A stretch of 64,000 nucleotides of DNA from Candidatus Yanofskybacteria bacterium RIFCSPHIGHO2_01_FULL_41_26 (GCA_001794055.1 MGJB01000006.1:90168-154167); one strand, 5' to 3'. Shown: positions 9,965 to 38,586, counted from the stretch's first letter. Notes: generated by a model not told the origin, from the letters alone. Numbers and translations: made by a program.

Positions 9965-10710
9965 TTGATAAACAAATTAAATCTAATTATATGCCAGATT
10001 GCCGCCAATCCATCTTTCCAATTTATCTTTTTACCGTCTTGATAAGTCCTGCCGCTATACGAAATTGGCACTTCAATAACTTTAAAATGTAACTTTCCGA
10101 TCCAAGCAGTTAATTCGGGATCAATACCAAATCTTTTGGATTTAAGATGGGGGTAGATTTGGTTTATTGAGTCCTTGGAAAAAACTTTATAGCAAGTGTA
10201 CATATCGGTTAGTTTAACTCCGCTTAAAATATTGGACATCCAGTTTAATGCCTGGCTGAACAGATAGCCACTTTTGTAAATAATTTTGTTTTTCTGTTCT
10301 GGTTTCATAAAACGCGAGCCATAGACAACATCGGCCTTGTTTTCTATTATGGGTGTTATCAGATTAGGGTATTCTTGCGGATTGTACTCAAGATCGGCAT
10401 CTTGAATTAAAATAATATCCCCCGCTGCCTCCTCGAACCCCCTTTTTGTAGCCGCACCTTTACCCATATTCTTATCTAAAAAAACGACATTATACTCCAC
10501 CTGTGGATAACCGACTTGCGAAGTCGGTATGTGGATAAGTTGATTTAGTATCTCTCTAGAGCCATCGGTTGATCCGTCATCAACTAAAATAATTTCTTTC
10601 TTGAGAGGCAAACTAACTGCCTCAACAGCATTGATTAATTTTCGCAAAGTTCTTTCTTCATTATAAACCGGGATAATGATGCTCAATTTTTTACAATCAA
10701 ATTCGTTCAT
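9961..10710 (-). CDS. Glycosyltransferase family 2 (DPM1-like polyprenol-phosphate glycosyltransferase)
   Basis: SIIIPVYNEE, VDDGSTDGS, QDADLEY, VYGSRF, EVPISY; start chosen at MNEF. Confidence 0.88.
   Translation of the reverse strand: MNEFDCKKLSIIIPVYNEERTLRKLINAVEAVSLPLKKEIILVDDGSTDGSREILNQLIHIPTSQVGYPQVEYNVVFLDKNMGKGAATKRGFEEAAGDIILIQDADLEYNPQEYPNLITPIIENKADVVYGSRFMKPEQKNKIIYKSGYLFSQALNWMSNILSGVKLTDMYTCYKVFSKDSINQIYPHLKSKRFGIDPELTAWIGKLHFKVIEVPISYSGRTYQDGKKINWKDGLAAIWHIIRFNLFIK
10500..10538 (+). repeat. Rearranged intragenic copy of the RAYT REP
   Basis: CCTGTGGATAACCGACTTGCGAAGTCGGTATGTGGATAA; read as LIHIPTSQVGYPQV in the GT2. Confidence 0.9.
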
Positions 10711-11848
10711 AAATTTTAGCAAATTCATTGGCTATAATATTCCAATTGTATTTCTCGGCAACCAATGCTCTGCCATTATTAATAATTTTTTCTCTTAACT
10801 GTTTGTCGCTTAGCAATAATATAATTTTTTCAGCTAAATCTTTAGGGTCGGAAACTTTGCAAAAAAGACCCGTCTGCCCGTTTTTTAAAAAATCAGGGAT
10901 TCCACCTACGGCCGTACCTACTATAGGCAATCCTGCCGCCATTGCCTCCAGAAACGCCGTGCCAAGACCCTCTGAAAGAGAAGGCCTGACAAAAATATCC
11001 GCCATAAATAAATATTTTGGCAATAAATCATTTGAAATGTCCCCCAAAAATTCAATGTGATTTTCCAACTTTAAATTTTTAACTTTTAACTTTAAATTTT
11101 TTTCTAACGGGCCGTCTCCCACTATCATTAGCTTGGCATCAGGAATTTCTCTGATAACCATGGCCACTGCTTCTATCAAATCTCCGATACCATTTTTCTT
11201 AACTAATCTCGAAACCGTAATAATGACTTTTTTGTGATTCATGATTCGTGATTCATGATTAGTGAATTTTTCCAAGTCTACTCCGTTTGGTATCACGCTT
11301 ATCGGTATTTTAGGATTTTGGGATTTAACATATTGTGCAAGATAATTACTGATCGCCGTAACTGAATCTGTTTTTCTAAAAATAAGATATCGGAAAAATC
11401 GCATCAACCACGACTGCTTATTTAAAACTTTCCCTTCCTGTATGGTGACGATGAGCGATGTTTTAGGATATATCCATTTCAGCAACCAACCTCCGCCAGC
11501 CGCCTGAGAAGCCTGAAAAGCATGAATGATATTATACTGGCCATATTTGCGCATCAACTGGTGCGCTTTTAAAAAAATAGCTATTGGGAAAAAATTTTTG
11601 GGCAATAAAAAATTGAGAAGGCTAAAGGAATTACCGACGCGATATATATTCACGTTGCCCATTTGTTCAAATGCAGGGATATTTTTTGATCCGCCTCCGC
11701 CAGTAGGGGCGGATGGCGGACGAGAGGTAATTAAATCAAAATAAATTCCAGGCAATCTGTCTGTTATGTTTTTTATAGCAAGCTCAGAACCGCCCACTTG
11801 AGGCAAATAAGCTGTAGTAAGTATTAGAACTCTGGATTTTTGAGTCAT
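10697..11848 (-). CDS. Glycosyltransferase family 4
   Basis: YLPQVGGSE, EGLGTAFLEAMAAGLPIVGTAVGG; start chosen at MTQK. Confidence 0.9.
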   Translation of the reverse strand: MTQKSRVLILTTAYLPQVGGSELAIKNITDRLPGIYFDLITSRPPSAPTGGGGSKNIPAFEQMGNVNIYRVGNSFSLLNFLLPKNFFPIAIFLKAHQLMRKYGQYNIIHAFQASQAAGGGWLLKWIYPKTSLIVTIQEGKVLNKQSWLMRFFRYLIFRKTDSVTAISNYLAQYVKSQNPKIPISVIPNGVDLEKFTNHESRIMNHKKVIITVSRLVKKNGIGDLIEAVAMVIREIPDAKLMIVGDGPLEKNLKLKVKNLKLENHIEFLGDISNDLLPKYLFMADIFVRPSLSEGLGTAFLEAMAAGLPIVGTAVGGIPDFLKNGQTGLFCKVSDPKDLAEKIILLLSDKQLREKIINNGRALVAEKYNWNIIANEFAKIYERI

Positions 11849-11876
11849 TTTGTGGTAATTTTGGCATAAAATAACA

Positions 11877-13139
11877 ATGAAATCAACCCCGAACAATACT
11901 TATATAAACACGAACGGAGACCTCAAAAAAAGGATTCTATTCGTAATTACACAGTCAGAATTGGGAGGAGCCCAAAAATTCTTGTCTAATCTTATTTCTC
12001 ATTTGGATAGGAATAGATATGAGTTTTTGGTGGCAGTCGGTTCAAGCGGTAATGGCGATTTTTTGAGAGTACTGAAGACTAAAGGCATTTCCTATCAAAC
12101 TCTTAATTTTTTGAAGCGAGACCCGGCAATAAGCGACCTTAGGGCTGTTTTTGAAATCCGCAGTTTGATCAAAAATTATCGTCCCGATGTTTTGTTTTTA
12201 AACAGTTCTAAGGCCGGATTTATCGGCTCTTTGGCCTCCGTATTTCCAACAAGGATAAATGCCGTAAAAGTTATTTACAGAATAGGCGGATGGTCATTTA
12301 ATGACCCGTGGCCGAAGTGGAAAAAACTGCTTTGGATTATCTTGGAATGGTTAAGCGCTAAATGGAAGGATGTTTTAATCGTTAATAATCAGAATGACTT
12401 GGAACAAGCTAAAAAACTAAAGATAAAACCCCGAATGCAGACAGTTTTGATTCACAATGGCATAGAGATTTATAAATTGGACTTTATGCAAAAGGAGGAA
12501 GCGCGAACAAGGTTGTTCGAAAAAACCGCTAAGTATTCCGATGGAGATACTCCCGCCCCAGAAGAACAGGGTTCGCCCCATGAAGTTGGACAACAAACCC
12601 AACATGTCATCGGCACGATCGCCAACTTCTACCCAACTAAAGGTTTGGAATATCTTATTCAAGCTGCCGATTATTTTCACCGAGGTTCGATATCGGTGAG
12701 TGATGCAGATAGTCTTATTTTTTTTATTATTGGAGACGGAGAATTAAGACTCGAACTGGAAAAAATGATACGAGAAAAAAGGTTGGGAGAAAAAGTTTTT
12801 CTTTTAGGCCAAATTCCCGATGCTTATAGGTTTTTGCCAGCTTTTGATGTTTTCGTTCTTCCATCAGTTAAAGAGGGTTTTCCTTGGGCGCTGATTGAAG
12901 CGATGTCGGCCAAATTGCCGGTCATTGCCACTGACGTAGGAGCAGTGTCGGAAATAATTGATAATTATAAAAACGGTTTACTAGTAAAACCAGGGGACCC
13001 AATCAAATTGGCGGAAAAAATCAACGAGGTCTTAAGAAATGACCATCTTAAAAATGAACTTGGCATCCAGGCCCACCAAACCGTGCTTTTCAATTTTGAG
13101 CTTGATAAGATGGTAAAAAAGATTGAGGAACTACTCTAA
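11877..13139 (+). CDS. Glycosyltransferase family 4
   Basis: ITQSELGGAQ, EGFPWALIEAMSAKLPVIATDVG. Confidence 0.9.
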   Translation: MKSTPNNTYINTNGDLKKRILFVITQSELGGAQKFLSNLISHLDRNRYEFLVAVGSSGNGDFLRVLKTKGISYQTLNFLKRDPAISDLRAVFEIRSLIKNYRPDVLFLNSSKAGFIGSLASVFPTRINAVKVIYRIGGWSFNDPWPKWKKLLWIILEWLSAKWKDVLIVNNQNDLEQAKKLKIKPRMQTVLIHNGIEIYKLDFMQKEEARTRLFEKTAKYSDGDTPAPEEQGSPHEVGQQTQHVIGTIANFYPTKGLEYLIQAADYFHRGSISVSDADSLIFFIIGDGELRLELEKMIREKRLGEKVFLLGQIPDAYRFLPAFDVFVLPSVKEGFPWALIEAMSAKLPVIATDVGAVSEIIDNYKNGLLVKPGDPIKLAEKINEVLRNDHLKNELGIQAHQTVLFNFELDKMVKKIEELL

Positions 13140-18037: not shown

Positions 18038-18038
18038 T

Positions 18039-23072: not shown

Positions 23073-24928
23073 TTTTGCAATTCTTTGATAAAACTTTTCA
23101 TCAATTCGCCAGTTTGAGGATCTAACTCGGCGTATTTTAACCCTGTTTGTAAATCTTTTAGGGCTTGGTCTTTATTATTAAGCGCGACATAAACCAGCGC
23201 CGAATTGTAATAAACACGAAGATTATTCGGGAGAAGAAGCTTAAGCTTTTCGATATTTTCAACGGCTTTAGTCAGGTTGCCTTGTTGAGCATATATAACC
23301 GACAAATTTTGATAAGGATAATAGAAGTTGGGATTAATTTCTATCGCTTTTTCGTATAACTTGATTGCTCCGTAAATATCCCCCCTAGATTGCAAAATAG
23401 TGCCTAAATTAAAATGAGGTTCGGCAAATATGTCACCTAGAGAGGCAGCGATTTTATAATATTTCTCGGCATTTTCCATGTCTTTTTTATTGTAATAGAT
23501 ATTTCCCACATTATTATTTATCCTGGAACTGTCCGGTTCATATTTTAGGATGTCAAGATAAAAAGCAAGCTGATTACCCCACAGAAGATTGCGCTGAATT
23601 GATTGATAAGCAAAGAAAGAAAAGTAGGCAACTAATACGGTGATCATCAAGATTCGACAGAGTTTCCAAGGGGTGGAAATCCCACTCCGAGAATTTTGGA
23701 TTTTCAAAAAGGTCGAATCTTTAAAATCCAAAAGTTTAACCAAATAAAAAGAAAAAACGAGCCAAAAACCAACCATTGGCAGATAGAGCCAATGCTCATA
23801 CATTAATGCATTTACCGGTGTAATACCGGAAACAGGTCCAAGAGAAATAAAAAACAACGCCACGCCAAAAAACCAGACCTGAAAAATTGCGGGTCGTAGG
23901 TTGTGAGTTGTGAGTTGACGCTTATACAGATGCCTTAGCCAAATCAATAATCCGATAAGGCCCAAAAAAATCGGCCAAACCGGCCACTGAAACAACGAGG
24001 TGTAGACAACAGCGCCTCTCTCCATGTGAAGACCCGTCGGAACTATCAAAAGTTTTAGATATTCCCACAGTATGGGCAGAAAGGTAAATACTCTGACATA
24101 TAGATTTTCAGAATAAATATTAGGTTCAGCGTAAAAATTAAGGGTATTCTGAAAATTTAAAACCGTAAGCCTCAAAATTCCATAAACGACAACTACTGCA
24201 AAATAAGGCCAAATTTTAATTAGGCCATGTTTTACGGATTTCAAAAATCGTTCTTTTGAGATAAAAGAAATATAAAAAGCGACAGCCAAAAACGGGAAAA
24301 TTATCGCAGTTTCCCGACTTAAAAGAGCCAAGACCAGAAAAACTAAGGACAGCACTCTATTCAAGGTTAAACCTTGTATCCTTCCAAGGTTTAACCTTGG
24401 AGTAGTTTCTGATCGATAGAACAAAATCAATGTCGCCAACATGAATGTCGTCACCAAAGCGTCTCCCCTGCCCGATATGTAGGTTATTGCCTCCGTTTGC
24501 AAAGGATGAATCAAAAATATCAAAGAAGTTAAAAATGCCACTGCCAAAGTTCGACCCTTTGAAATCCCAAGGTCAAACTTTTTTAACAATAAGAAAATTA
24601 AAATACCATTGGCCACATGAATCAAATTGCTCAGTAAATGATAGCTTAGCGGTTTAATACCTGAAATTATATAATTTAAAGCAAACGTAAAAAATAAAAA
24701 AGGTCTGTAATAATTACTTTTCAAGCCCACTCCCGCAAGAGTATTATGGGTAAGCCAGAATTTAATATTATCCCAGCTTATTGTGTGGACAAAATTATTT
24801 CTTATTATCCAATCCTCATCATCCCAAAACAACTGGTTATTCAAATTAAATGAGTAAATAAAGCCGCTTATGACGATAAGGACTACGATCGGCAGCCAAA
24901 CTTCTTTTTTTAACAGTAGTTTATTCAT
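23069..24928 (-). CDS. TMTC-like protein O-mannosyltransferase (GT-C + TPR)
   Basis: FWDD, YYRPF, HPLQTEAITYISGRGD, EHWLYLP; TPRs. Confidence 0.8.
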   Translation of the reverse strand: MNKLLLKKEVWLPIVVLIVISGFIYSFNLNNQLFWDDEDWIIRNNFVHTISWDNIKFWLTHNTLAGVGLKSNYYRPFLFFTFALNYIISGIKPLSYHLLSNLIHVANGILIFLLLKKFDLGISKGRTLAVAFLTSLIFLIHPLQTEAITYISGRGDALVTTFMLATLILFYRSETTPRLNLGRIQGLTLNRVLSLVFLVLALLSRETAIIFPFLAVAFYISFISKERFLKSVKHGLIKIWPYFAVVVVYGILRLTVLNFQNTLNFYAEPNIYSENLYVRVFTFLPILWEYLKLLIVPTGLHMERGAVVYTSLFQWPVWPIFLGLIGLLIWLRHLYKRQLTTHNLRPAIFQVWFFGVALFFISLGPVSGITPVNALMYEHWLYLPMVGFWLVFSFYLVKLLDFKDSTFLKIQNSRSGISTPWKLCRILMITVLVAYFSFFAYQSIQRNLLWGNQLAFYLDILKYEPDSSRINNNVGNIYYNKKDMENAEKYYKIAASLGDIFAEPHFNLGTILQSRGDIYGAIKLYEKAIEINPNFYYPYQNLSVIYAQQGNLTKAVENIEKLKLLLPNNLRVYYNSALVYVALNNKDQALKDLQTGLKYAELDPQTGELMKSFIKELQK

Positions 24929-26903
24929 TGAAATATTTACTTAAAAAATCTTTTGCCTGCGTATTGTTTTTATCCAATCTCACAGCTTCTTTGAAAAAGG
25001 CCTGGGCGTTTTCAAGCCGGCTTAAGTTCATATAAACCACTCCCAAAATAAAATAATATTGACTCTCTTTCAAGCCTAAATCAATCGCCATTTTTATATT
25101 TTCCGCCCCCAATTGCTGATTTTGTTTATCCGAGTAAGAAACGTGAATAAATCCTTTGTGGAGATAAGGATATGGATTTTTGGGATCAATTTTTATAACT
25201 TCATCGGCAAAATAAGCCGATGCTTCCAGCCAATCAATTTTAAACAAAACGCGTGACAAAATAAGATTTAGGTCGGCCTTGTTTTTATTTGAGTTTTTTA
25301 TATTAGCAGATATTTTATCTATGGCATTTTTATCAATAATGGAAAATTTAGAAATAACCCCGGTGTTTTTACTATTATTCTTAAGCAGAATGATTGCATC
25401 TTCGTTAATATAAACAATTTTCCAGTCCAGGTTTTTGGCAATATTTCTTAAAAAATTATCGGCCCAAGGCGTAACATCATTATATCCAAAAAATATGAAG
25501 TTGATGCCATATTTCCCTGAAAATTCAAGCCACTTTTTCTTATCCTCTTGCATCGGCTTATATGTCTCGCTAAAAAACTCAACCGAATATGCTTCTGGCC
25601 TGTTGTCAACAAAAACTTTCTCTTGGGGGTACAGCTGCCATATCAAATATCCTCCAATATCAAAATTATTAAACATTGGTCCTTTGATATTGTTTTGTTT
25701 GACAAAATCAACAGCTCTTTCCAGTCCATTCGGAACAGAAAAACCGGATACCCTGGAAACTCCCATATACCTGTAATATGTATTATTTGCCACAAAAAAA
25801 ATAAGCAAAATAATCAACGCGGAAAACAGAACTTTAAAAAAACTGCTCAATCTTTTAACTTGAGGTTTAACTTCAAGTTTATAGAGATTAAACCTCTGTA
25901 GAACATCTGCCAGTAGGATCGCCAATATCGGGAAAGACGCAAGCGCGTACAACGGCAAATTGCGTAACATCCTGAATCCAGCATACACAAAAAATGCCAT
26001 AGTAAGTATTTCAAAGACCCTTTGTTTCGATTTTTTTGCGGTCAGTATCAAAGAAATAACTAAAAGTACCACCGAAAGTTTAAAAATAAAAACCGGCAAA
26101 AGAAAACCTCTAAGGTTGGCCAGAAAAGAAAGGGTTTGATTCTCAACTATGTTGTATCCGTACTCGTTCAGCACTTTAAAGGGCAAAAGTGCACCTTGAA
26201 TTCCGTTCGGATTTATAAGTGTTGCCAAGCTGGTTAGTGATCCAATCAACACTATTCTGATAAGGTCCGACCTTTTAGAAACAAGCCGGTCTATGAGAAA
26301 TGCTAACAACAGAAATGGTCCGATAAAAAAATAAATGTGCAAATTTACCCAAAACAATTCCAAAATCGGCAAAAACCAGAGAAAAAAATAATTTTTTTCA
26401 TATTTTGCCTTTAATATAGCAAACAAGAAAAATGACAAAATGACGAAACTGAATATCTCCGGTCGGACTTCCGTTCGCTGGATAAATATGAACATTGAGA
26501 GAAGGAAAGATACTAAAAGAGACCAGAAACCTGTGGATAACCGACTTCGCAAGTCGGTTATCCACAGGTGTTTTATAGTAAAAAATAGTAACAAAAACGC
26601 AATCAGTACCAAGGCGGTTTTAACAAGAGTTAATCCGATAAATCCAAAGTAACTGAAAATACCAAAAAATATTACCTCGCTTAACCAGTGATGGTTGATA
26701 AAAGGGAAATCCGGCTCGGTAAAAGAAAATAAATTTGTCTTTGGAACCTCTTTTGTCTGCCAAATAATCTCGCCAACCTTAAGATGCCGACCGATATCTT
26801 GGCCGATAGTGTCAAAGTTGTGAATCAAAAAACTCCCCAAAAGTACAAAAATGAGAACAAATAAATAGTTTTTCTTAAGGAAGTACAACAATGGTTTTAC
26901 CAT
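24921..26903 (-). CDS. Polytopic GT-C-like membrane protein with C-terminal TPR
   Basis: DIGRHLKVGE, NHHWLSEV, RPEIFS, WVNLH, GGYLIW, VFVDNRPEAY; start uncertain. Confidence 0.68.
   Translation of the reverse strand: MVKPLLYFLKKNYLFVLIFVLLGSFLIHNFDTIGQDIGRHLKVGEIIWQTKEVPKTNLFSFTEPDFPFINHHWLSEVIFFGIFSYFGFIGLTLVKTALVLIAFLLLFFTIKHLWITDLRSRLSTGFWSLLVSFLLSMFIFIQRTEVRPEIFSFVILSFFLFAILKAKYEKNYFFLWFLPILELFWVNLHIYFFIGPFLLLAFLIDRLVSKRSDLIRIVLIGSLTSLATLINPNGIQGALLPFKVLNEYGYNIVENQTLSFLANLRGFLLPVFIFKLSVVLLVISLILTAKKSKQRVFEILTMAFFVYAGFRMLRNLPLYALASFPILAILLADVLQRFNLYKLEVKPQVKRLSSFFKVLFSALIILLIFFVANNTYYRYMGVSRVSGFSVPNGLERAVDFVKQNNIKGPMFNNFDIGGYLIWQLYPQEKVFVDNRPEAYSVEFFSETYKPMQEDKKKWLEFSGKYGINFIFFGYNDVTPWADNFLRNIAKNLDWKIVYINEDAIILLKNNSKNTGVISKFSIIDKNAIDKISANIKNSNKNKADLNLILSRVLFKIDWLEASAYFADEVIKIDPKNPYPYLHKGFIHVSYSDKQNQQLGAENIKMAIDLGLKESQYYFILGVVYMNLSRLENAQAFFKEAVRLDKNNTQAKDFLSKYFNE
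26530..26568 (-). repeat. Perfect intragenic copy of the RAYT REP
   Basis: Identical to 38548-38586; read as HLWITDLRSRLSTG in the 24921 CDS. Confidence 0.95.
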
Positions 26904-27522
26904 CGCATTGTTTTTCAAAAAGTTTGACATAGCCCCCTTCAGTAACAAAATTTCCCCGTGTATCCACTAGCCGGCCGTATTGGATTTTGGCGGCCATTTC
27001 ATATCGCTTGTACTTGGGGCTATCCGGCAATATCACGCCCAACAAACTTTCTCCGTTGGGAATAGGGATATTGGAAAATATATTCGGTCCGACCGATATG
27101 TCATCCTGGGGAGTTACCGTCCAAAAAACATTTCTTCCCGGATGATCAATCCCTTTGTAGACAAACAGGGCATCCTGATTGTCATAAGTATTATGATCCA
27201 AAAATTTTATTTCGCCTTTCAATTCACAAGAAGCATCAGCCAAGAGCAGCGACCAGGGCACAGTTTCGCCAACAAAAGATGTCTGGCCATTGCCGGTGGG
27301 AAGCGGAACTGGAACCTTAGTTACGTTTGGTCTTACTGCGCCCTCCGTAGCCCCTGGCGAAGGACGGAGAATAGGAGGAGACGAGACTGTCGGAGATACT
27401 GATGGCTCCGGATAATTAACGACATCAGGTGCCTGAAGGATATTAGATGTCCAAATATAAAACCCTACAAAAAATAAGCCTGCCACTAAAATAACCACCA
27501 AAATAATATTGTTTTTAGACAT
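26875..27522 (-). CDS. Hypothetical membrane-anchored protein
   Basis: N-terminal TM, Pro-rich linker; co-directional with neighbours. Confidence 0.6.
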   Translation of the reverse strand: MSKNNIILVVILVAGLFFVGFYIWTSNILQAPDVVNYPEPSVSPTVSSPPILRPSPGATEGAVRPNVTKVPVPLPTGNGQTSFVGETVPWSLLLADASCELKGEIKFLDHNTYDNQDALFVYKGIDHPGRNVFWTVTPQDDISVGPNIFSNIPIPNGESLLGVILPDSPKYKRYEMAAKIQYGRLVDTRGNFVTEGGYVKLFEKQCDGKTIVVLP

Positions 27523-27540
27523 GAGAAGATGTTAACCAAA

Positions 27541-28719: not shown

Positions 28720-28753
28720 GTCTTAATGATACCATAAAGTCGGGCCCTGAAGA

Positions 28754-28785
28754 AATCAAAACCCGCCTTTCGGCGGGTTTTGATT
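28754..28785. terminator. Bidirectional intrinsic terminator downstream of the S-layer-like gene
   Basis: AATCAAAACCCGCC-TTTC-GGCGGGTTTTGATT. Confidence 0.85.
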
Positions 28786-28830
28786 CTCTAACAGTTCCTT
28801 AGAAATCAGAACTGTCGGATGTTTACCAGA

Positions 28831-31800
28831 TTACCTCTGGAAGGTCGGACCATACAACGGCAAGCTTCTTATGATACCCGTCGCTGAAGGCGTATCTAAA
28901 GAATTTGTCGTATTGTCATAGTTGCCTACCCAGTTGATCAAGCCAGCCAGATCATCCTGCAAAGTTACTTGGAAGTAATCGGCAGCTCTGCCTGTAGTTC
29001 CAGCATTTGCATAGTGCTGTGTCGGGTTGTTCAATCTGATACTGAAGGTCCTTGTTTCTCCTCCAGCAATTTCTATATCCTGACCGGTAAAGTTGAAGGA
29101 TATGGAAGCGTTCCAGTCCGGTCGGACACCAGAGGAACCATTCCCCATGCTAATGGTCTGACTTGTATCAGCCGCACCGGGAGTGCCAAGGCCTCTAAGA
29201 GCGCTCGGACCGTCAATCACGGTTCCCTGTTCATCCAAGACAGAGAAGGTAGTGCTGGTTGTCGTATTTACATGTGAGTCACCAGAAGCTACCACTTCAA
29301 AGTTGATGGAACCGGATCCGTTATGTTCATTGTCAAATCTCAAGTTGGCAGTGGCAAGACCCATCGCCGTTACCGAGAATTTGAACACAGTCGGAGTGCC
29401 TATCAAGCTGTATGGCGAAGATAGGGCAACCTGCTCAATCTTCGGAAATACTCTATAAACGGTCTGGTTATACGCACCAGACACATCATTAATGTTCGTG
29501 CTGGTACCATCCAGTACGGTGCCCGAACCCTCACCAACTGCTCTGAATCCGTTAGTGAAGCTCCCGTCATACCTGTCAACCAAATCCAACGAGAAGGCGA
29601 CCAGTGTGGTGTCAGCAGTTGTACCTGTAGTTTGGGTAGCTCCTTCATCCTTGGTCTTCATGTCGGCGTTCACGGCAATTTCCAAACTTGCGTCTTTCGG
29701 AACATAAGGTCTGTCTGCATCTGTGGTTGACCAATTGAAGTTCGCGGAAGCCGCATTGCTAAACGACTGGAACTTGGTCATCGTAGCTCCCGATTTAGTC
29801 TTGTAGGTCAAGATAACATTTTTGACATTTTTGGCGCTCGTATCTTCGTCAGAAGAGGAAGCGGCAATCGTCAATTTCTCAATATATTGAGCCTCATCTG
29901 TAGCGGTTAATCTGAACTTGGAGACCGGAGCGTTTACCTGGCCCCAATATAAGGCGCCTTTTACAGGACTTGAAGCGGCAGTGGCCAATGTCATTGAACC
30001 GCTATTCTTCACGGTCAAGACCTGGGTCGGGGTTGTAGTGCCATTAACTGCAGCAGCGCCGGGATTTACGGTGTTGGAATCAGAATCCAACGAGGTAACA
30101 TCTCCTGTTGCGGCGATGTCGAAGGAATAGACGTCACCAGCTGTACCTGAAGCGGTATTGTTGGACAAATCAACCCTTACCAACATTGTCTTTGACGTTC
30201 CTGCTGGAATATTCCAGTCCAAGTTCGAGAAAGTCATCGTACCTGTTCCGGAAGTACCCAACAAATTACTTGAAATCTTGTCTGAACCGGCAATCAAAAC
30301 ACCCGTTCCGGCTTCATATAACTGAACCTTGGCCGTTGCATTAGCAATTGATATTCCCGTATCTGTCGTATCAGTACCTTCGTCCAAAGTTGCGCCTGAA
30401 TCAGCGGCATAACCAGTAATCTTAATAGTAGTTACCTTGAGCGCAGAAGCCTGGCCTGCGGCAAAGGTAATACCAACCGCATCAACATCCTTCATGCCCC
30501 TTATCTTTGTCTGGTCAGTCGGAGAACCGGCTAAGCTCAAAGTCAAAGCGGAAGAAGTAATAGTAATGTTAGAACCGGCAATATCCGAACGGGGAACGAT
30601 ATCCGCGGAAGCAACCGCAGTATTTGTTCCGGCATACTTCATCTTGGATACAGCGGCAGTATCATCGCTGTAATCATCCAATATGACCTTGAATACGCTG
30701 TCAGTATCAAGCAATTGAGTGCCACTGCCAAGCGAAGTGTCTACGTCGCCGGTAACTTTGAAGTTGTAAGTTACGCCGGCAAGCAGATCAAGGGTGTCGG
30801 TAAATTGTTCTTGAGCGCCTGTTGCGTTGTCGGGACAGCTGCCAGAATCATCAGCATGGTCAAATGCCGTGCCGTCTTTAGGACCCATCACAACAGTGTT
30901 GGTATCCTCATTCCAGACCTTGACATCGTTTAGGTCGTCCCAGTCACCTTCGGTTGCGGCATTATCATATGTGCCGTCATTTCCAGAATCAGCACAAATA
31001 GTGAACTCGGTCTGTTTGATCTCTATGTTTGAAGCGGCGGTCATCGAGAATCTCAACAGAGTAACATCAGCTACCTGTGTACCAATCGTAGTGGCATTAG
31101 GACCGTTGTAAACCAAGGTCAATGCTCCACCCATAAGCGTCAAGGTAGTTGCTTCAGCGGCAGTGTCAAGAGCGGCAATACCCTGAGCAGCGGTAGCATT
31201 AGTAGTATCCATACCTTGGCCATATTGGTCGCCCACTGCCCAAACATCCGGAGCGGTCTCAAAGTAAAGGTCAACTGTCTCGTCTTTCTTTCCACCCACA
31301 TCTCCGTAAACCTTGAAGGTGGCATTGCCTCCTTTAGAGATAGTATATCCAGAACCAAGATCAAAAACGAGATAGTTGGTGCTTGTAACTGAACCCGCCC
31401 ACTCCATTGCTCCGGTCTTTAGCTTAACATTAGTCAAATCAGCCGGCTTTAATGTGCCGTCGTTCAACATTGTCAAGCGCTTTACTGAAGCGGCTTCGGT
31501 ATTTGCCGTAAGCTTAAATTCGGAAAGCTGGGCTTGCTTCTGTCCAACCGTCGGGTCGGAAAGTGAACCAACTTTAGCGACATCCAGTCGGCCAGACGAA
31601 GCGCCGGAGATGGCAAAGTTGTTGCCGCTCAAAGGCGCTCCGGATACTACTGAACCTCCCGCTGCGGTTACACCCAGCAACTGAAAGTAGTTAACATTAC
31701 CGGCTCCTCCAGTAAGTATGTCGCCAACAAATGAGAGGTCTTTTGAACCGTCCACAGCAATATTCAATAAGAATGATGCCTCACCCGATGCAGACGAAAA

Positions 31801-32583
31801 TGTCTTACCTGAAGTCAATCTTTTTGCTCCATCGTAGACATATACATTACCAAAGTCATCAGTGGTACCAGGGCCTAATCTCTTAAGAGTCACGGTGTTG
31901 ACTGTACCCGAACCACTTACTCTAACTCTTAACATCTCAACTCCGGTGGCATTGTTGGTAATAGTCTGGGCTGACGGATTTCCAGGCGCCAACATAACCG
32001 ACAACGGTCCTGAAACTACTGGAGCCGGGGCAGCAACTGAACCGCCTCTTGCATAAGCAGGAACTTGATTTACTGAAGAGTAATTAGAACCTACAGAATA
32101 CAGAGCAAATTCAGCCGCATTGATGACGAAAACCTTCTTGAAGAAATTCGGATCATCGGCAACCGCCTGTGCACCAGAGGTATTAACCCAGTGCAACACG
32201 GCTACATCTTCTCCGGTTGTTTCTATTCCATAAACTTTCTCATCTCCGTCAACTCGGAATAAACCGGAAGTTACAAATGCATCTCTGGCAGCAGCAGATA
32301 CATTCTTAACACTGGCAAATCCTCCGAGGTGTCCGTAAAGATTAAAGATTTGCGGATTCAAGAATAATCTCTTGTATCCCCAATCGTTGACGATATAGAC
32401 ATCCGGGTCATCAGAACCGGCTGCGCTAATCGTGTTGCCTTCTTTCAAACCATAGTCTGAAGGAGCAACTGCGAAAGCTGTAAGAGACAGCACTCCCGAA
32501 AGGGATAGTACCGTCGAAACAGCTGTAAGGATCGCGGCGGTTTTTATCAAACCGACACGATTGCCTTTTAATAAATTCGACAT
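28831..32583 (-). CDS. S-layer-like major surface protein (1250 aa)
   Basis: Signal peptide, Ala/Thr/Gly/Ser-rich beta-strand repeats, own promoter and terminator, GC-richer codons than neighbours. Confidence 0.72.
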   Translation of the reverse strand: MSNLLKGNRVGLIKTAAILTAVSTVLSLSGVLSLTAFAVAPSDYGLKEGNTISAAGSDDPDVYIVNDWGYKRLFLNPQIFNLYGHLGGFASVKNVSAAARDAFVTSGLFRVDGDEKVYGIETTGEDVAVLHWVNTSGAQAVADDPNFFKKVFVINAAEFALYSVGSNYSSVNQVPAYARGGSVAAPAPVVSGPLSVMLAPGNPSAQTITNNATGVEMLRVRVSGSGTVNTVTLKRLGPGTTDDFGNVYVYDGAKRLTSGKTFSSASGEASFLLNIAVDGSKDLSFVGDILTGGAGNVNYFQLLGVTAAGGSVVSGAPLSGNNFAISGASSGRLDVAKVGSLSDPTVGQKQAQLSEFKLTANTEAASVKRLTMLNDGTLKPADLTNVKLKTGAMEWAGSVTSTNYLVFDLGSGYTISKGGNATFKVYGDVGGKKDETVDLYFETAPDVWAVGDQYGQGMDTTNATAAQGIAALDTAAEATTLTLMGGALTLVYNGPNATTIGTQVADVTLLRFSMTAASNIEIKQTEFTICADSGNDGTYDNAATEGDWDDLNDVKVWNEDTNTVVMGPKDGTAFDHADDSGSCPDNATGAQEQFTDTLDLLAGVTYNFKVTGDVDTSLGSGTQLLDTDSVFKVILDDYSDDTAAVSKMKYAGTNTAVASADIVPRSDIAGSNITITSSALTLSLAGSPTDQTKIRGMKDVDAVGITFAAGQASALKVTTIKITGYAADSGATLDEGTDTTDTGISIANATAKVQLYEAGTGVLIAGSDKISSNLLGTSGTGTMTFSNLDWNIPAGTSKTMLVRVDLSNNTASGTAGDVYSFDIAATGDVTSLDSDSNTVNPGAAAVNGTTTPTQVLTVKNSGSMTLATAASSPVKGALYWGQVNAPVSKFRLTATDEAQYIEKLTIAASSSDEDTSAKNVKNVILTYKTKSGATMTKFQSFSNAASANFNWSTTDADRPYVPKDASLEIAVNADMKTKDEGATQTTGTTADTTLVAFSLDLVDRYDGSFTNGFRAVGEGSGTVLDGTSTNINDVSGAYNQTVYRVFPKIEQVALSSPYSLIGTPTVFKFSVTAMGLATANLRFDNEHNGSGSINFEVVASGDSHVNTTTSTTFSVLDEQGTVIDGPSALRGLGTPGAADTSQTISMGNGSSGVRPDWNASISFNFTGQDIEIAGGETRTFSIRLNNPTQHYANAGTTGRAADYFQVTLQDDLAGLINWVGNYDNTTNSLDTPSATGIIRSLPLYGPTFQR

Positions 32584-33025
32584 TTTAATTTTTTAATAAC
32601 TGAACTGGTGCCGTCGCTCTGACATATCTATATTTTTAAATTTCGATATGTCGAGTCAACCAACGCCAGAACAGGTTTTTAATAACACTAATTAACTGAA
32701 CTGACCGACCACAATATTTCTAAAGTCCACCTATTTCGACCTGGCAAATTTTAGAAGTGGTTTACAACTTTAAAACTTAATTTCATTTCTAATCTAAGCA
32801 TCAATTTTTTCTTGCTGTCCTGATTGTCAATGTCCTTTCATTGGACTGCCTGCCTCTATAGATATTTCGATATGTCTATCTACGATGTCAATATTTCGAA
32901 ATATCACTAAAGGCAGAAAGTCCGATATCTACTCAAAAAACGACCTGAAATTAGATCGATTACGAATCTTTTAATTCTTTAATTCTTCATATTTAATGCC
33001 GTTTAACGGCCAGTATTGTCCGCCA

Positions 33026-33054
33026 ATACTACACAAAATACATTTGACAGTCAA
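33026..33054 (-). promoter_or_regulatory. Sigma70 promoter for the S-layer-like gene
   Basis: Minus strand TTGACT-17 nt-TAGTAT. Confidence 0.6.
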
Positions 33055-33160
33055 TGGTGACAAACCATGACTTCATAATAAGTATAAAGGTTATAATAAG
33101 GCCTGCAAGGGGTCAAGTGTGGATAAATCAGGCCATATTTTGGCGTAAAATCAAGGTTTA

Positions 33161-36100
33161 TTATTTGATACTCATTACCTTGCTGCCATACCCCCAAATA
33201 ACCCTATTTTCACTTAAAACCGGGGATATAACCGAGCTTACTCCCGTTGAAATGTGCCATCTCTCATTGCCGTCCTTATCAACGCCATAAACATCTCCCG
33301 ACTGGGTAGAGAAATAGGCACCGCCGTCTTTGTCTACTGCTATCTGTTGGTTTATTTTACCTTCGGCCTGGAATGACCAACTAACCGTAAGGTCAGATTT
33401 ATTAAGCGAGAAAAGTTTTGAACCGGAAGCAGGATTTGACCAGCTGTAATCTAAACCGACAAGAAGATTGGTCGGGGTAATTGAAACCATTGTTGCCCCC
33501 GAACCATTGCTGGCCGGTTCAATAACAGTCGTATTCAAAACAGAACCGTCAGGTGGAATGACGAACATTCTAAACCCGAAAGAAGAACCCCCATCATAAC
33601 CGATAGCCGAATAAGTCTTGCCTGTTGATTTGTCATGTGACGGATTCGACTGCATACTGCCATTGGCGCCGGTATAAGCCAAATCCCAAATTTTTGAGCC
33701 ATCAGACAAATATTTTGTAAAAAATTGATTACCGCTTATCCGTCTTGCCACAACACTATCGCCATTTTCAAGAACAATCGGAACAAAACCACTCAGGCCA
33801 GGATTACTGGCTTGGGTCTTTGTTGAGCCGCCTGTATTTAACACGACAAGCTTGTCGTTGCCGCTTGAATAGGTAAAATATGGTTCACCTTTTTCGGATA
33901 CAGTAAAAGCTTTGATCGTACTTGCATCATCATAATCCCATTTCTTGGTTCCGTCGGAATTAAGAGCCGTAAAAGCCAAAACTCCGCCAGCTCCGATACG
34001 GCCAAAATACACCACACCATCAGATAAGATTGCCGGGGTGCCAATACTGACATTGGTGGCGTATTCCCATTTTTGTACGCCATTTTTATCAAGTTTTATT
34101 AATTTTCCGGAACCGTTGGCCGAGCCGAAATAAATACCTCCGTCAGCTGAAACAACCGGCTGACCTACAGTATTTCCGGCTCCGGCATCAAATTCCCAGC
34201 TTATTGTTGCCCCAACACCCGGCCCCGCCAAACTAGCCGCAAAAGACGTGTGATATTGGTCTTTACCGAGCATAGACCAAGCCCCGTCGTCTATCGCGGA
34301 TGGGAAACTCACCTCGGCTATATTAGAAATATCTGAACACTTATCCACAGTTTCCCCATTACCGACTTCGCAAGTCGGTATGTTGATAACTTTTGTTTTC
34401 AGGGCAAAATAAAGTGTCTGGCCATAGTCATGGGCAATATCGGGAGTTACGATTTGCGATTCTCCCTCATTTCCGACGCTAGGCAAACTAGAGCTGGCTA
34501 CTTTTATTGCTAAATCCCAACTGGCGGAAGAAGGGAAACCGGTGAGCGAATATCGCAAATCGTAACTCAAACTGGCCGGACTGTAACCGCCTGGGTCGGG
34601 CGCCGACCATGAAATGGTAAGCGGTGAGTTGATGGTGGCCAATAAGTTGGTAACGGCTGATGGAGCTTGAGTTATAACATCAGCGCTATTCTGGGATTTA
34701 GGAGTTGATGTGGCGGTAATCCATCCGCCATCCATCCGTTGGGCAGTTTTTTTAGTGTCATTGTTGCCAATAATTTCGTCATTGCCGTTTATTTTCCACG
34801 CATTTGAACCATCAACTTGGTCAATTACAGTTCCGGAAATGTCTTTCAAAACTAAATTTTCTCCCGTATTGCCTAAAGCGCCGGTGTATATTTGGTCGGC
34901 ATCAATATCAGGCAACGTTTGATCATCGGTCCTTTCTAAGACATAAAAGCCAAACGGACTTATATTGCCAATCAGTGTTATGTCTGGCGTACCGTCTTTT
35001 GACTTAAGATTCCAATTGTTAAGATTTATGGTTTTGTTGGTGATGTTACGAAGTTCTATCCACTCATCGTTCGATAATGACGCTGAGGTTCCCATCCAAG
35101 CAATTTCGTTTAGGACAATGTCACCAAGATTGGCAGTGTCACCATCGGGTTCTGGTGACGGGATGGGTGACGGTGACGGCGATTGTGACGGAGTGGGAGT
35201 AGGAGTTGCTTGCGGTGAGCTTGTCGAATCCGGTGTCGAAGATGACCCGCCTCCTCCGCCGCCATATGAAACAATAACCTGAACCGCTGTGCTGTTTTTG
35301 GCTTTAGGCGTTCCGTTTATCAACCCGCCGGTTGCATCTTTATTTGTTGATGTCCCGGAAAAACTTTTCCAATTTGAGGCGCTATTACCGGCTTTCATCG
35401 AATCTATTCTCTCCATTGAATTCTTTGATGTTGAGTCACCGAAATACCATGCTTCACCCGTGCCACCAACCACATCTACCACAATGCCAATGCTATCAAA
35501 CAGTCTGATCATTTCGCCTGCATTGTTAAGGCCTCCTTGGCCAAAACCTGCAGCCAAATCAGCTGTTATATCGCTTACGGTATTATCATCTGTCCTCTCA
35601 ATTAAAAAATAGGAATTCGCTTGAATAATTGTCCCTTCCGAGAAAATAATATCAGGGGAATCATCGCTTGAAACCAACCGCCAACTGGATATGTCTATTG
35701 GGTTGTTTTCGGTGTTATAAAGCTCAATCCATTCATCTGTTGCAGAGGCATCCGTCCCCGCCCAGGCAATCTCGTTTATGACCACTGTGCCGAATTTCTT
35801 TGCTGTGGATAATTTTGGGATAGGAGATGGGGTTGGGGTAGTTGACAGCTTCGGTGTCGGTGCTGGTGTTTTTGATGGTGACAGAATAGGTGACACAAGA
35901 GGTGACACTATTGTGACACTGGTGACAGGTGTCTTTGTCACCAGTGGTGACGGTGACACTACTTGATTTGTCACCTTCGGTGTTGGTGTCACCATGTTGT
36001 CACCATCATTTGAGTTATCCACAATGTCATTATCGGTGCTAATTCCTATTAACCCCAGCAATCTTGCAAACCAGTTTTTCTCTAGCGGTTTATTGGCATA

Positions 36101-37075
36101 TTCTTGTTTTGCTTTCTCCGCTTCTGTTAAAAACAAGTTCAACGCCCCAGAGCCGTTAAGAACTACCTCTCTTGATAATCGGTCCCAATAGCCATCGAGG
36201 ATATCCTCACTCGATATTGTTAGTTCACCAGTTTTAATGATATTTTTAACTAATACATAATTACCACTCTTGTCTTTTTTATACCCTACTAAATCCTCCT
36301 CTCCTTTTTGATTTTTCTTATAAATCCAAAAATCTATTGTTGGGTTTGCATAGTTACTATCATTAATCGTATCTTTACTAAAAAAATTCCCATTTGAATA
36401 CTTGGCTATTTTATCAAAATATTCGCCCAGATTAGCAAGAATCACGGGCTTCAATCCTTCTTTTTTAAATTTAGAAGCAACATTAAAGTTATCAGGACTC
36501 CATTTCGCCATTTCATGTTCATACGGACTGCCGAATGTTCCTACCGGCGGATGGGGATCATTTCGAGTGTGGTCGGGAACTCCCATATCTTCCAATAAGT
36601 GCAGAAGGTGACCAAATGCAAGCATGGCTCTTTGTCTGTCTCCTTGAGCATAATCATTCATTGCTCGTTCATAAGAAAAGTCATCTGGACTTTTAATTAC
36701 CCCCGCTGATTGAGCAATACTATTGTTGGACATGGCAAGATTTGATTGAGCGCCAGAACTCATCGCCCACTGTTTGGATGTAGGGAATCCGGCCATACCA
36801 ATATTGTGAACTGGGTCATAGAAATGATTCATCGGCCTCATACCTTGGTCTTCATCCATGGAACCCTGAATTATCCAAGTTTTATCTTGATTATTTAACT
36901 TTTGAGAAAAGTTAAGATTATAAAAATCAACAATCTCGTCGGTTAACGCCGGGTGAGTATGCGGCTGGTCGTAAGCCGATGCTTTGGTAATGAAAAAGGC
37001 GCCAATAAGCGCCCCTCCTACTATTAAGTTTTTGATTCGTTTATGCCTCATAACTGGCTGATTTTCCATATCCAT
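33161..37075 (-). CDS. Secreted multidomain protein: Zn-phospholipase C/P1-nuclease-like domain, two lamin-tail domains, PQQ-type beta-propeller
   Basis: THPALT..DED..NHFYDP..GHLLHLLEDMGVPDH; two (I/L)NEIAW.GT...DEWIEL.N repeats; (K/R)WEY/WDY/WSF propeller blades. Confidence 0.75.
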   Translation of the reverse strand: MDMENQPVMRHKRIKNLIVGGALIGAFFITKASAYDQPHTHPALTDEIVDFYNLNFSQKLNNQDKTWIIQGSMDEDQGMRPMNHFYDPVHNIGMAGFPTSKQWAMSSGAQSNLAMSNNSIAQSAGVIKSPDDFSYERAMNDYAQGDRQRAMLAFGHLLHLLEDMGVPDHTRNDPHPPVGTFGSPYEHEMAKWSPDNFNVASKFKKEGLKPVILANLGEYFDKIAKYSNGNFFSKDTINDSNYANPTIDFWIYKKNQKGEEDLVGYKKDKSGNYVLVKNIIKTGELTISSEDILDGYWDRLSREVVLNGSGALNLFLTEAEKAKQEYANKPLEKNWFARLLGLIGISTDNDIVDNSNDGDNMVTPTPKVTNQVVSPSPLVTKTPVTSVTIVSPLVSPILSPSKTPAPTPKLSTTPTPSPIPKLSTAKKFGTVVINEIAWAGTDASATDEWIELYNTENNPIDISSWRLVSSDDSPDIIFSEGTIIQANSYFLIERTDDNTVSDITADLAAGFGQGGLNNAGEMIRLFDSIGIVVDVVGGTGEAWYFGDSTSKNSMERIDSMKAGNSASNWKSFSGTSTNKDATGGLINGTPKAKNSTAVQVIVSYGGGGGGSSSTPDSTSSPQATPTPTPSQSPSPSPIPSPEPDGDTANLGDIVLNEIAWMGTSASLSNDEWIELRNITNKTINLNNWNLKSKDGTPDITLIGNISPFGFYVLERTDDQTLPDIDADQIYTGALGNTGENLVLKDISGTVIDQVDGSNAWKINGNDEIIGNNDTKKTAQRMDGGWITATSTPKSQNSADVITQAPSAVTNLLATINSPLTISWSAPDPGGYSPASLSYDLRYSLTGFPSSASWDLAIKVASSSLPSVGNEGESQIVTPDIAHDYGQTLYFALKTKVINIPTCEVGNGETVDKCSDISNIAEVSFPSAIDDGAWSMLGKDQYHTSFAASLAGPGVGATISWEFDAGAGNTVGQPVVSADGGIYFGSANGSGKLIKLDKNGVQKWEYATNVSIGTPAILSDGVVYFGRIGAGGVLAFTALNSDGTKKWDYDDASTIKAFTVSEKGEPYFTYSSGNDKLVVLNTGGSTKTQASNPGLSGFVPIVLENGDSVVARRISGNQFFTKYLSDGSKIWDLAYTGANGSMQSNPSHDKSTGKTYSAIGYDGGSSFGFRMFVIPPDGSVLNTTVIEPASNGSGATMVSITPTNLLVGLDYSWSNPASGSKLFSLNKSDLTVSWSFQAEGKINQQIAVDKDGGAYFSTQSGDVYGVDKDGNERWHISTGVSSVISPVLSENRVIWGYGSKVMSIK
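34341..34389 (-). repeat. Degenerate intragenic copy of the RAYT REP
   Basis: TTATCCACAG...TACCGACTTCGCAAGTCGGTA-TGTTGATAA; read as INIPTCEVGNGETVDK. Confidence 0.85.
35877..36004. repeat. Array of ~11 GGTGACA/TGTCACC heptamers inside the 1304-aa CDS
   Basis: Direct and inverted copies counted by eye. Confidence 0.8.
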
Positions 37076-37614
37076 ATATTAGTCATCGTATTCTTAGAAA
37101 AAATAGTTTCTGCATTAAATCTACCTGCTGGAAGTGTGATTTTTTGGGTTTTTCCACCCGAAACAGGAAGTTCCGTTGTTGAAGGAGTTTCTCTTGTGTA
37201 TGAATATGTATATCTCACTTCCTCATCGTTACGATTTTGAGGAGTCCAAAATTTTCTGTTTTGTTCTAGTTCACCAATGAGATTTACCAATAAATTTTGA
37301 GATTGATATTCTTGAAATGTTTTTAGCCAGTTATCTTGTTTGCCCACCACAAAATACTTACTCGCCAAAGTCGTATCTCCCTTGCGCAAGGCGTCCAAGA
37401 ACATATCATAAGTTTCCTCTGGGGTTTTACCGCCATATTTGTCTTCACGGTAGGGTTTTTCCCATTGGGCCTGGAGTCGTTTGGCTTCCCAATTTGCCCG
37501 AAGATTATTGACATACGGCATGCCATTAAGGACAAACCACAAGACACCACCAGCCAGCAAAACCAAAAAGAGCACCCCGTACCAGCTCTTTAAGTTAATC
37601 CACAATTTATTCAT
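37048..37614 (-). CDS. Conserved hypothetical membrane-anchored protein (NTF2-like?)
   Basis: N-terminal TM; YGGKTPEETYDMFLDALRKGD...ASKYF; overlaps start of the downstream gene. Confidence 0.65.
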   Translation of the reverse strand: MNKLWINLKSWYGVLFLVLLAGGVLWFVLNGMPYVNNLRANWEAKRLQAQWEKPYREDKYGGKTPEETYDMFLDALRKGDTTLASKYFVVGKQDNWLKTFQEYQSQNLLVNLIGELEQNRKFWTPQNRNDEEVRYTYSYTRETPSTTELPVSGGKTQKITLPAGRFNAETIFSKNTMTNIWIWKISQL

Positions 37615-37798
37615 TAGTAAATCCTTTTGAACTGCCGCGAAATTAGAAGGTCCGCTAAATTAAGGAGGGATTTATAATCTATCGCACCCAATTCGCGCAG
37701 CAGATCAAAAAAATCTACTCTTCAAAAAATTTACTCTTTTTTCTTACACTTTTATTTATCAAAACAACTTCTCACTGTCAACCCAACCAATCCACCAC

Positions 37799-37837
37799 CC
37801 TGTGGATAACCGACTTGCGAAGTCGGTTATCCACAGG
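37799..37837 (+). repeat. 39-bp REP palindrome, left flank of RAYT
   Basis: CCTGTGGATAACCGACTT-GCG-AAGTCGGTTATCCACAGG, perfect 18-bp arms. Confidence 0.95.
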
Positions 37838-37861
37838 TACACTTTGGCAATCCAACAAACT

Positions 37862-38536
37862 ATGGCAACTGAACAAAATTTTTACCACACGCTAAATAGG
37901 GGTGTCGAAAAACGTAATATATTCCTAGATAAGCAGGACCATTTTCGTTTTATTCACAATTTATATGAACTCAATAATGAAGATAGGGTTGATACCACCT
38001 TTCATTCTTTTAAAGAAGATCCGAATCTTACCGACTTCGCAAATCGGAAACAAAGAAAAATATTGGTAGACATTCTTGCGTTTTGTTTAATGCCAAATCA
38101 TTATCACCTGCTTCTTTCACCAAAAATAGAGGGTGGGGTTCCTAAGTTTATGAATAAGATAAACATTGGCTACGCAAAATATTTTAATAAAAAATATAAG
38201 AGAGTTGGAGCGTTGTTTCAAGGAAGATATAAAAAAATATTAATAGCAGATAATACTCACTTTCTCCACCTTCCTTTTTATATCCATTTCAATCCGCTTG
38301 ATTTAAAATATCCTGAATGGAGAGAAAATAGAATATTAAATGCTGAAAAAGCTTTAGGGTTTTTAAAATCCTATCGTTGGAGCAGCCATTTAGACTATTT
38401 GGGTGTTAAAAATTTTCCGTCGATTATAAATAATGGCTTACTTACAGAAATTTTTGACGGAAGTAAGGGTTACGAAAAACTGATTAATAATTACCTAAAA
38501 GATATTCAAATAGATCCAGAGGTTGCGTTAGAATAA
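37862..38536 (+). mobile_element. REP-associated tyrosine transposase (RAYT, HUH Y1, IS200-like)
   Basis: YHTLNRG, FCLMPNHYHLLL (HUH), YFNKKYKRVGALFQGRYK, YIHFNP, YRWSS; flanked by inverted REPs. Confidence 0.9.
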
Positions 38537-38547
38537 AGAATGGTAAC

Positions 38548-38586
38548 CCTGTGGATAACCGACTTCGCAAGTCGGTTATCCACAGG
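38548..38586 (-). repeat. 39-bp REP palindrome, right flank of RAYT (inverted loop)
   Basis: CCTGTGGATAACCGACTT-CGC-AAGTCGGTTATCCACAGG. Confidence 0.95.

Follow-up and report, generated by a model that had tools for sequence, protein, structure and literature searches.

How does a palindrome that brackets a transposase gene come to lie, in frame, inside genes for unrelated proteins? The question is raised by a stretch of 64,000 nucleotides (the window; G000:C6:90168-154167) from Candidatus Yanofskybacteria bacterium RIFCSPHIGHO2_01_FULL_41_26, a very small groundwater Patescibacteria bacterium whose genome (G000; 799,807 bp, 18 contigs, 40% G+C) was analyzed here. In this window, a gene for a REP-associated tyrosine transposase (RAYT) stands between two inverted copies of a 39-bp repetitive extragenic palindrome (REP), and further copies occur within protein-coding genes. 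In silico analysis of the copies, of the RAYT and of related genomes points, with good confidence, to a REP-RAYT system with hairpins that persist within genes and are predicted to be translated there. The features on which this reading depends are listed below, with positions counted from the first letter of the window.

37799..37837, no strand: upstream REP, a perfect 39-bp palindrome with loop GCG, 24 nt 5' of the RAYT start codon
37862..38536, + strand: RAYT-type Y1/HUH tyrosine transposase gene, 224 aa, with an NHYHLL HUH motif and a GRYK tyrosine
38030..38048, + strand: decayed hairpin core in the RAYT gene, 17/19 positions, in-frame LTDFANRK
38548..38586, no strand: downstream REP, a perfect 39-bp palindrome with loop CGC, 11 nt 3' of the stop codon, followed by a T-rich tail
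10500..10538, no strand: GT2a copy, consisting of box, core and box in direct orientation, read as IHIPTSQVGYPQV
9961..10728, - strand: GT2a host gene, family-2 glycosyltransferase (GT2), 255 aa, Pfam Glycos_transf_2 114 bits
26530..26568, no strand: membrane/TPR copy, a perfect REP, read as LWITDLRSRLST
24921..26948, - strand: membrane/TPR host gene, 675-aa polytopic membrane protein with a C-terminal TPR, conserved on both sides of the REP
34341..34389, no strand: LTD copy, consisting of TTATCCACAG, 10 nt, core and TGTTGATAA, read as NIPTCEVGN
33161..37075, - strand: LTD host gene, 1304-aa secreted protein with two lamin-tail domains (LTD) and a beta-propeller

The three perfect 39-mers of the window (26530-26568, 37799-37837 and 38548-38586; pattern search, none in 100 shuffles) are composed of CCTGTGGATAACCGACTT-SSS-AAGTCGGTTATCCACAGG. 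The 26530 copy matches the copy downstream of the RAYT gene in every letter (loop CGC), and the upstream copy is the reverse complement of the downstream one (loop GCG). This is the geometry described in an earlier, sequence-only reading of the window, namely a RAYT bracketed by inverted perfect palindromes, with an identical copy in a membrane protein. The 19-nt core ACCGACTT-SSS-AAGTCGGT is perfect at five window sites (10510, 26540, 34361, 37809 and 38558; chance expectation 0.00), and a sixth site, with two mismatches, is the decayed core within the RAYT gene. The genome-wide search suggested in the same reading raised the number of perfect cores from the five of the window to 12, with none for the reversed control. 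The invariant part of the family is the hairpin core (perfect in 12/12) and not the adjoining box: in the rearranged copies (10500-10538 and 34341-34389) the core is perfect, and the TGTGGATAA/TTATCCACA arms differ in orientation or spacing. Folding of the single-stranded 39-mer as DNA gives a hairpin whose stem has 18 bp and whose loop has 3 nt (-20.1 kcal/mol; z = -11 to -12). The family therefore resembles REPs in being a short (20-40 bp), multi-copy, hairpin-folding palindrome (39 bp, 12 core copies), but departs from them in location, as 7 of the 12 copies lie within long conserved open reading frames (ORFs). No GTAG or CGTC tetranucleotide tag adjoins the stem, the ends of which read CCTGTGGATAA...TTATCCACAGG, and the REPIN doublet arrangement is absent from G000, where all 12 copies are single hairpins; one close hairpin pair was found in the related genome G002 (C1:62410/62445). 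An exact 35-mer of the palindrome is held by only one other genome in the GTDB species set, a metagenome-assembled genome of the Patescibacteria group. Perfect hairpins with a stem of at least 8 bp are generally abundant in G000 (580 in the genome vs. 119 in shuffled sequence).

The gene between the inverted REPs (ATG 37862, stop 38536) has the organization of a RAYT, and the same layout was found in G001, G016, G002, G005, G003 and G009, each with its own hairpins; the RAYT of G001 also carries a decayed core at the same place as that of G000. The encoded protein matches Pfam Y1_Tnp (39.7 bits, cut-off 23). In an alignment of 12 orthologs (53-76% identical), N79-H80-Y81-H82 and the Y123 of GRYK show little or no variation, and H80, H82 and Y123, which by analogy would be the catalytic residues, are invariant in all 12. 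Since the sequence match to PDB chains was weak (E ~0.3 to ISDra2 TnpA), a fold search was needed. The AlphaFold model built from the 12 orthologs (pLDDT 66.9, pTM 0.70; core residues 7-135 well predicted) gave top PDB matches in Foldseek that are all Y1 transposases (2xm3, 2a6o, 4er8 and 2vjv; E 8e-5 to 2e-4), the best being 2xm3 and 2a6o, with ISDra2/IS608 TnpA and the E. coli RAYT-REP complex 4er8 among them. The RAYT assignment made earlier is thus upheld by the Y1_Tnp match, the conserved HUH and tyrosine residues and the fold. RAYT homologs occur in 22 of the 41 related genomes searched, and all five same-genus genomes have an ortholog or homolog. Because the RAYT ortholog adjoins the same LTD gene in G000, G002, G003 and G005, it is regarded as a resident, vertically inherited gene, syntenic and with one copy per lineage, unlike an insertion sequence (IS). 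The whole of an IS200/IS605 element would be present in several identical copies; G000 has a single copy of the gene (plus one 38%-identical paralog), and no tnpB was seen next to it.

Apart from the two copies that flank the RAYT gene, the 12 G000 copies comprise three that are intergenic or at ORF starts (C8:20133, C11:9842 immediately 5' of mraZ, and C1:57839) and seven that are in frame and stop-free in long ORFs with full Pfam domain matches. Four of these seven lie outside the window:

C1:33961: copy in a Wzy_C protein gene
C9:23327: copy in the TGT gene
C18:9351: copy in a second GT2 gene (GT2b)
C18:46176: copy in the MnmA gene

All three host ORFs of the window are continuous through their REP copies, as the sequence-only reading had stated for the peptides that it quoted. 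Its rearranged copies in a GT2 protein and in a phospholipase C/LTD protein are present as described, but the phospholipase C part was not retained: Pfam at E<=0.01 supports LTD and beta-propeller domains in the 1304-aa protein and gives no phospholipase C family. In the relatives, copies were counted as intragenic if the frame through them was open for 150 aa or more and extended, still open, for 90 nt or more to either side; by this rule 7/17 copies are intragenic in G002, 5/10 in G004, 3/7 in G005, 2/3 in G003 and 0/2 in G001, and 0/2 among the two examined of the four copies of G016. The REP copy upstream of mraZ is accompanied by extra boxes, with four boxes within 130 nt (G000:C11:9744-9872).

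The perfect 39-mer is open in four of six frames, and in the third frame of each strand it encodes CG*PT(S/C)(Q/E)VG. Copies with both arms intact (membrane, Wzy and TGT) are in open frames in 3/3 cases, while those read as ...PTSQVG/PTCEVG (GT2a, LTD, MnmA and GT2b) have a different left arm without TAA in 4/4 cases; each of these four TAA-frame copies lacks the TGTGGATAA arm upstream. The pattern is the one that selection on translated inserts predicts, and the intragenic copies are likely to be translated as short extra loops of ~6-17 residues.

Codon alignments of the G000 sites with five same-genus genomes support the view that the copies are insertions: identity to the orthologs is 54-80% to the left and right of the copies, and at 5 of the 7 sites there are orthologs from which the segment is missing. 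The state of each site is given below, with the length of the segment where it could be stated.

GT2a: segment-free in 4/5 (G001, G003, G004, G005); 10-11 aa
Membrane: segment-free in 3/4 (G001, G003, G005); net ~10 aa
TGT: segment-free in 3/5 (G001, G003, G005); 6-7 aa
MnmA: clearly empty in 2/5 (G004, G001); G002 without an evident hairpin there
Wzy: segment-free in 3/5 (G002, G003, G005); 17 aa
LTD: segment-free in none; occupied in 4/4 orthologs found
GT2b: segment-free in none; occupied in 4/5, with a non-hairpin sequence of similar length in G001

Dispersal in frame, as proposed earlier, is therefore supported by the segment-free orthologs, but the uniform, clean gap of 13 residues that was expected gave way to gaps of 6-17 aa. 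In alignments with solved structures, the TGT insert is in a 30-residue stretch aligning to only ~2 residues of the solved chain, and the MnmA insert opens gaps of 15 residues in total immediately before a conserved Cys.

A further line of evidence links the dispersed hairpins to the RAYT. Every RAYT ortholog has a hairpin type of its own on its flanks, as listed here, and a conserved box TGTGGATAAC/GTTATCCACAG adjoins these RAYT-flanking hairpins.

G000 and G001: ACCGACTT..AAGTCGGT, also the type of the dispersed copies of G004
G016: ATCGACTT..AAGTCGAT
G002: AACGACATT.AATGTCGTT
G005: AACGACCTT.AAGGTCGTT
G003 and G009: ..CGACACGG(C/G)GTGTCG..

The RAYT-flanking type dominates the dispersed copies: G002 has 17 such copies and G005 has 7, and G004 has 9 that are of the G000 type. 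At orthologous sites with homologous flanks (GT2a, TGT, MnmA, GT2b, LTD and C8:20133), the hairpin is of the genome's own type: G000 and G002 carry different own-type hairpins in GT2a and in TGT (where the codon phase also differs), G000, G005 and G003 each have their own type in MnmA, and the same pattern was seen when GT2b was compared across five genomes and at the intergenic site C8:20133, which corresponds to G004 C29:5734 and G005 C7:18487. Exceptions are the GT2b gene of G003, with a G005-like hairpin, and the LTD gene of G005, with a decayed G000-like hairpin. Between G000 and G004, the loop is flipped (CGC to GCG) at the Wzy and TGT sites and the stems are unchanged. The Wzy copies are identical at 34/39 positions, three of the five differences being the flipped loop, and their flanks at 159/200 and 159/206 positions. 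It had been suggested that a perfect copy indicates recent insertion; this is unsafe, because a near-perfect stem is shared at the Wzy site despite diverged flanks, and perfect copies are thus maintained over long times and are not only young.

The membrane-gene site was followed in 32 orthologs. Five are from G000 and four other members of its genus, and 27 were taken (25 loci with at least 55% identity plus the fragments L129 and L130) from the 80 metagenome loci that a search with residues 1-300 of the membrane protein returned. The site is empty in 21 of the orthologs; a REP, in four sequence variants, occupies it in 6, a 75-nt double-hairpin element in 3 and a third type of insert in 2. 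The double-hairpin element is GC-rich, gives the reading ..LEVRPA.(G/E/K)AWSADDPSKR(G/S)VLPLT.. and occupies the exact loop of the G000 REP in L031 (G002), L130 and L117. L130, which of all rows is closest to G000 (94% identity in the 136 columns kept), carries this element and not a REP. The third insert, found in L102 and L104, is unrelated. A tree joining the six REP-bearing rows was rejected (114.8 lnL units worse; approximately unbiased test, p = 1.6e-14), and the best tree requires five changes. The comparison shows repeated gain or loss at one loop, which is compatible with a preferred target or with survival at one of a small number of tolerant places.

These results can be brought together in the following model. 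The RAYT would bind the hairpin extruded on single-stranded DNA and cut near the conserved TGTGGATAA/TTATCCACA box, as do IS200/IS605 TnpA and the E. coli RAYT, and by cutting it would copy, excise or overwrite hairpins. In such a compact genome, most landing places would be genes, and the survivors would be copies that keep the frame, lack stops and lie in tolerant loops. A survival filter of this kind would explain why perfect copies occur only in the two open frames and third-frame copies have rebuilt arms. The hairpin would co-evolve with its RAYT, and hairpins at old sites would be brought to the current type of the genome (concerted evolution).

Several points weigh against this model. 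RAYT catalysis, translation of the inserts and current activity are steps that we infer, binding and cutting of the hairpin by analogy with characterized enzymes and translation solely from open frames. The family lacks the GTAG head of characterized RAYT substrates, and the protein reaches 42.7 bits with the NCBIfam REP_Tyr_transpos equivalog NF047646, under the cut-off of 80, so that on sequence it is best placed as a distant Y1-family member and not as the curated equivalog. Net length differences are 6-17 codons and not 13, and insertion boundaries are blurred; clean 39-nt boundaries are not definable because the flanks adjoining the repeat have diverged, and they thus give no support to simple cut-and-paste of a fixed 39-nt unit. 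Filled/empty polymorphism was sought in four public runs, none of them marked as a possible source of this DNA, which were compared with 24000-39000 of the window, i.e. in short Logan contigs that break at repeats, and no REP-skipping joint was present among the joints listed, beyond which there were 108 more; describing the RAYT/REP pair as active, as was done earlier, was therefore an overstatement. The best of the 80 metagenome loci are 74-79% identical, with no near-identical strain among them, and recent movement is thus unsupported. The tree of the membrane-gene site was a quick one with only four strongly supported branches, and the REP group was named after the first tree had been seen. 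Finally, shared sites with genome-specific hairpins could come from RAYT-independent gene conversion.

How far the RAYT itself is responsible can be argued in both directions. A stronger claim, which we consider rather unlikely, is that the RAYT repeatedly excises and re-inserts or overwrites hairpins at fixed TTATCCACA-box pads, including those inside essential genes such as TGT and MnmA, so that unrelated proteins are rewritten in concert while enzyme and hairpin co-evolve. Hairpin-directed single-stranded DNA chemistry of IS200/IS605 elements, with strand-specific seamless excision and target-specific insertion, would fit such repeated site use. If this claim is true, ultra-small bacteria would have a natural system that inserts peptides in frame and uses its sites again, with a recognition box that coincides with the DnaA box. 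The opposite claim, that the RAYT is domesticated or inactive and the hairpins are relics spread and homogenized by template switching and gene conversion without its catalysis, seems to us a little more doubtful still. It would account for the flipped loops on unchanged stems at the orthologous G000/G004 sites, as template switching at hairpins can give loop flips (known as minute inversions in chloroplast DNA), and it agrees with a RAYT that, unlike a jumping IS, keeps its synteny and has one copy per lineage throughout the genus, and with the lack of polymorphism among the joints listed. On the other hand, in 12/12 aligned genomes the RAYT ortholog is intact and its catalytic residues do not vary, hairpin type co-varies with RAYT lineage, gene conversion between scattered 19-39-nt tracts is inefficient, and REPs at the membrane site have a patchy distribution on the tree.

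Two further explanations are much less probable. The arms TGTGGATAA/TTATCCACA equal the consensus 9-mer of the DnaA box, and each perfect copy contains two exact TTATCCACA 9-mers (37801-37809 and 37827-37835, 26532-26540 and 26558-26566, 38550-38558 and 38576-38584). The palindromes might accordingly be primarily protein-binding sites under selection (DnaA boxes or parS-like sites), with a secondary link to the RAYT; at least 20 of the 37 exact genomic 9-mers adjoin a hairpin core, the stems are better conserved than the flanking coding DNA between G000 and G004, and parS sites can lie inside genes. We judge this improbable: a DnaA site would be lineage-independent, whereas the box varies with RAYT lineage and was not seen beside the distant orthologs of G036 and G030; no box cluster lies near dnaA (C17:96729-97211), clusters of at least four being found only at the RAYT and 5' of mraZ; the core and not the box is invariant (12/12 perfect); and the sites are absent from many orthologs. 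Still further from likely is that the intragenic hairpins go untranslated through ribosome skipping or mRNA removal, for which T4 gene 60 and the mitochondrial 'byp' elements are precedents. A strong hairpin (-20 kcal/mol as DNA) and the direct box repeats flanking the GT2a and C8:20133 copies, conceivable as take-off and landing sites, would suit it. However, all seven intragenic copies keep the frame and are stop-free, the Rfam scan of 9000-40000 of the window gave no family, and the stop-bearing (TAA-giving) arm is absent in exactly the four copies read in that frame, which is expected only if the inserts are read and therefore argues against bypass or RNA removal.

To our knowledge, work on REP/RAYT systems has dealt almost exclusively with Proteobacteria and with extragenic DNA. 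The G000 system resembles proteobacterial REPtrons in having a single Y1/HUH gene flanked by inverted REPs, dispersed hairpins and a fold match to E. coli TnpA-REP (4er8). It differs from them in (i) the lack of a GTAG/CGTC head, the conserved flank being TGTGGATAA/TTATCCACA, (ii) its 12 copies, which are singlets and not REPIN doublets, 7/12 of them intragenic, and (iii) a protein of 224 aa with a long C-terminal extension, scoring under the NCBIfam cut-off, in a 0.8-Mb Patescibacteria host. With IS608/ISDra2 TnpA it has the catalytic fold in common, but unlike in IS200/IS605 the gene is not in a multi-copy element and only the hairpins are repeated. Different hairpin classes flanking orthologs also have a parallel, as PMC3686654 describes orthologous, syntenic RAYTs flanked by different REP classes in Pseudomonas and Stenotrophomonas.

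The premise of novelty in the sequence-only reading, which called REPs classically extragenic, is not supported. According to PMC3733652, REPs inside ORFs of known proteins, including RAYT-associated GTAG REPs, have already been reported, as have Rickettsia palindromic elements (RPEs) inserted in frame, for which a location in loops was argued (Di Nocera 2013); the principle is not new, because intragenic REPs and in-frame RPEs have been published. In the same paper, the intragenic REPs of Opitutus terrae, Thauera and others and the RPEs are, like those described here, palindromes wholly within ORFs that add residues, which are argued to be tolerated in loops. In Opitutus terrae, Thauera and others, intragenic copies stand beside an intergenic majority (PMC3733652), whereas in G000 most members of a very small family are intragenic; and in Rickettsia, CGTC repeats and RPEs occur without a dedicated transposase (PMC3733652), whereas here the cognate RAYT lies next to hairpins of the family and changes together with them. 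The RPEs likewise are in-frame insertions in ORFs that encode functional proteins, which is a functional analogy only.

No description of this Patescibacteria system was found in the literature searched, subscription-only papers being outside its scope. What sets the present case apart is the ultra-small Patescibacteria host, the non-GTAG REP with arms equal to the DnaA-box 9-mer, the tiny and mostly intragenic family, the decayed copy within the RAYT gene (G000 and G001) and the site-by-site hairpin replacement tracking the RAYT. The copies amount to a natural experiment on protein positions that tolerate 6-17 added residues, including positions beside conserved parts of TGT and MnmA, and to a case of selection sculpting a selfish repeat, the stop-bearing arm having been rebuilt in one frame. 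As several orthologous sites differ in hairpin in step with the RAYT, the question of REP copying or homogenization becomes directly testable. Annotators should also be aware that small lineage-specific inserts in proteins of the Candidate Phyla Radiation (CPR) can be repeat-derived.

A useful internal contrast to the mostly intragenic REP family is provided by the palindromes of the second Y1/RAYT paralog (G000:C11:1120-1743; 38% identical), which is flanked by its own, different palindrome. Members of that family (7 genomic copies) sit mostly at gene borders, with at most 1/7 in a long open frame; one palindrome of this type is present in the window at ~53658-53705 (= C6:143825-143872), the 16-mer of its arms having been used as query.

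Concerning expression of the RAYT gene, a promoter scan around the G000 gene gave matches no more numerous than in shuffles. Upstream of the RAYT gene in G002 and G005 (L016/L017), a hairpin lies between TTGACT and TATATT, 17 nt apart and a few bases before the ATG; this layout, which G000 does not have, resembles a promoter whose spacer contains a REP, with a leaderless start, and hints at autoregulation.

Other repeats and inserts were observed as well. Two exact TTATCCACA boxes in direct orientation, 29 nt apart and with no core nearby, are located at 42859 and 42888 of the window (= C6:133026 and 133055). A small separate family of perfect palindromes, CCTGCCTGCC/GGCAGGCAGG, is represented at 45758-45777 of the window (= C6:135925-135944), C6:163590, C16:2181 and C18:13976. 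The TGT gene of G004 (L040/L096, G004:C83:10749-11430) is broken exactly at its REP, the match skipping from G000 residue 135 to 261, and its first part contains TAG; the break reflects either a deletion associated with the REP or an assembly error there. Finally, other short GC-rich, partly palindromic in-frame inserts are genome-specific (L012, L011, L051, L032 and L049), examples being NPPSRGFGEAR in the MnmA of G000, PSAGSGQG in the GT2b of G004, G003 and G002, and PARGGSASGG in the Wzy of G005.

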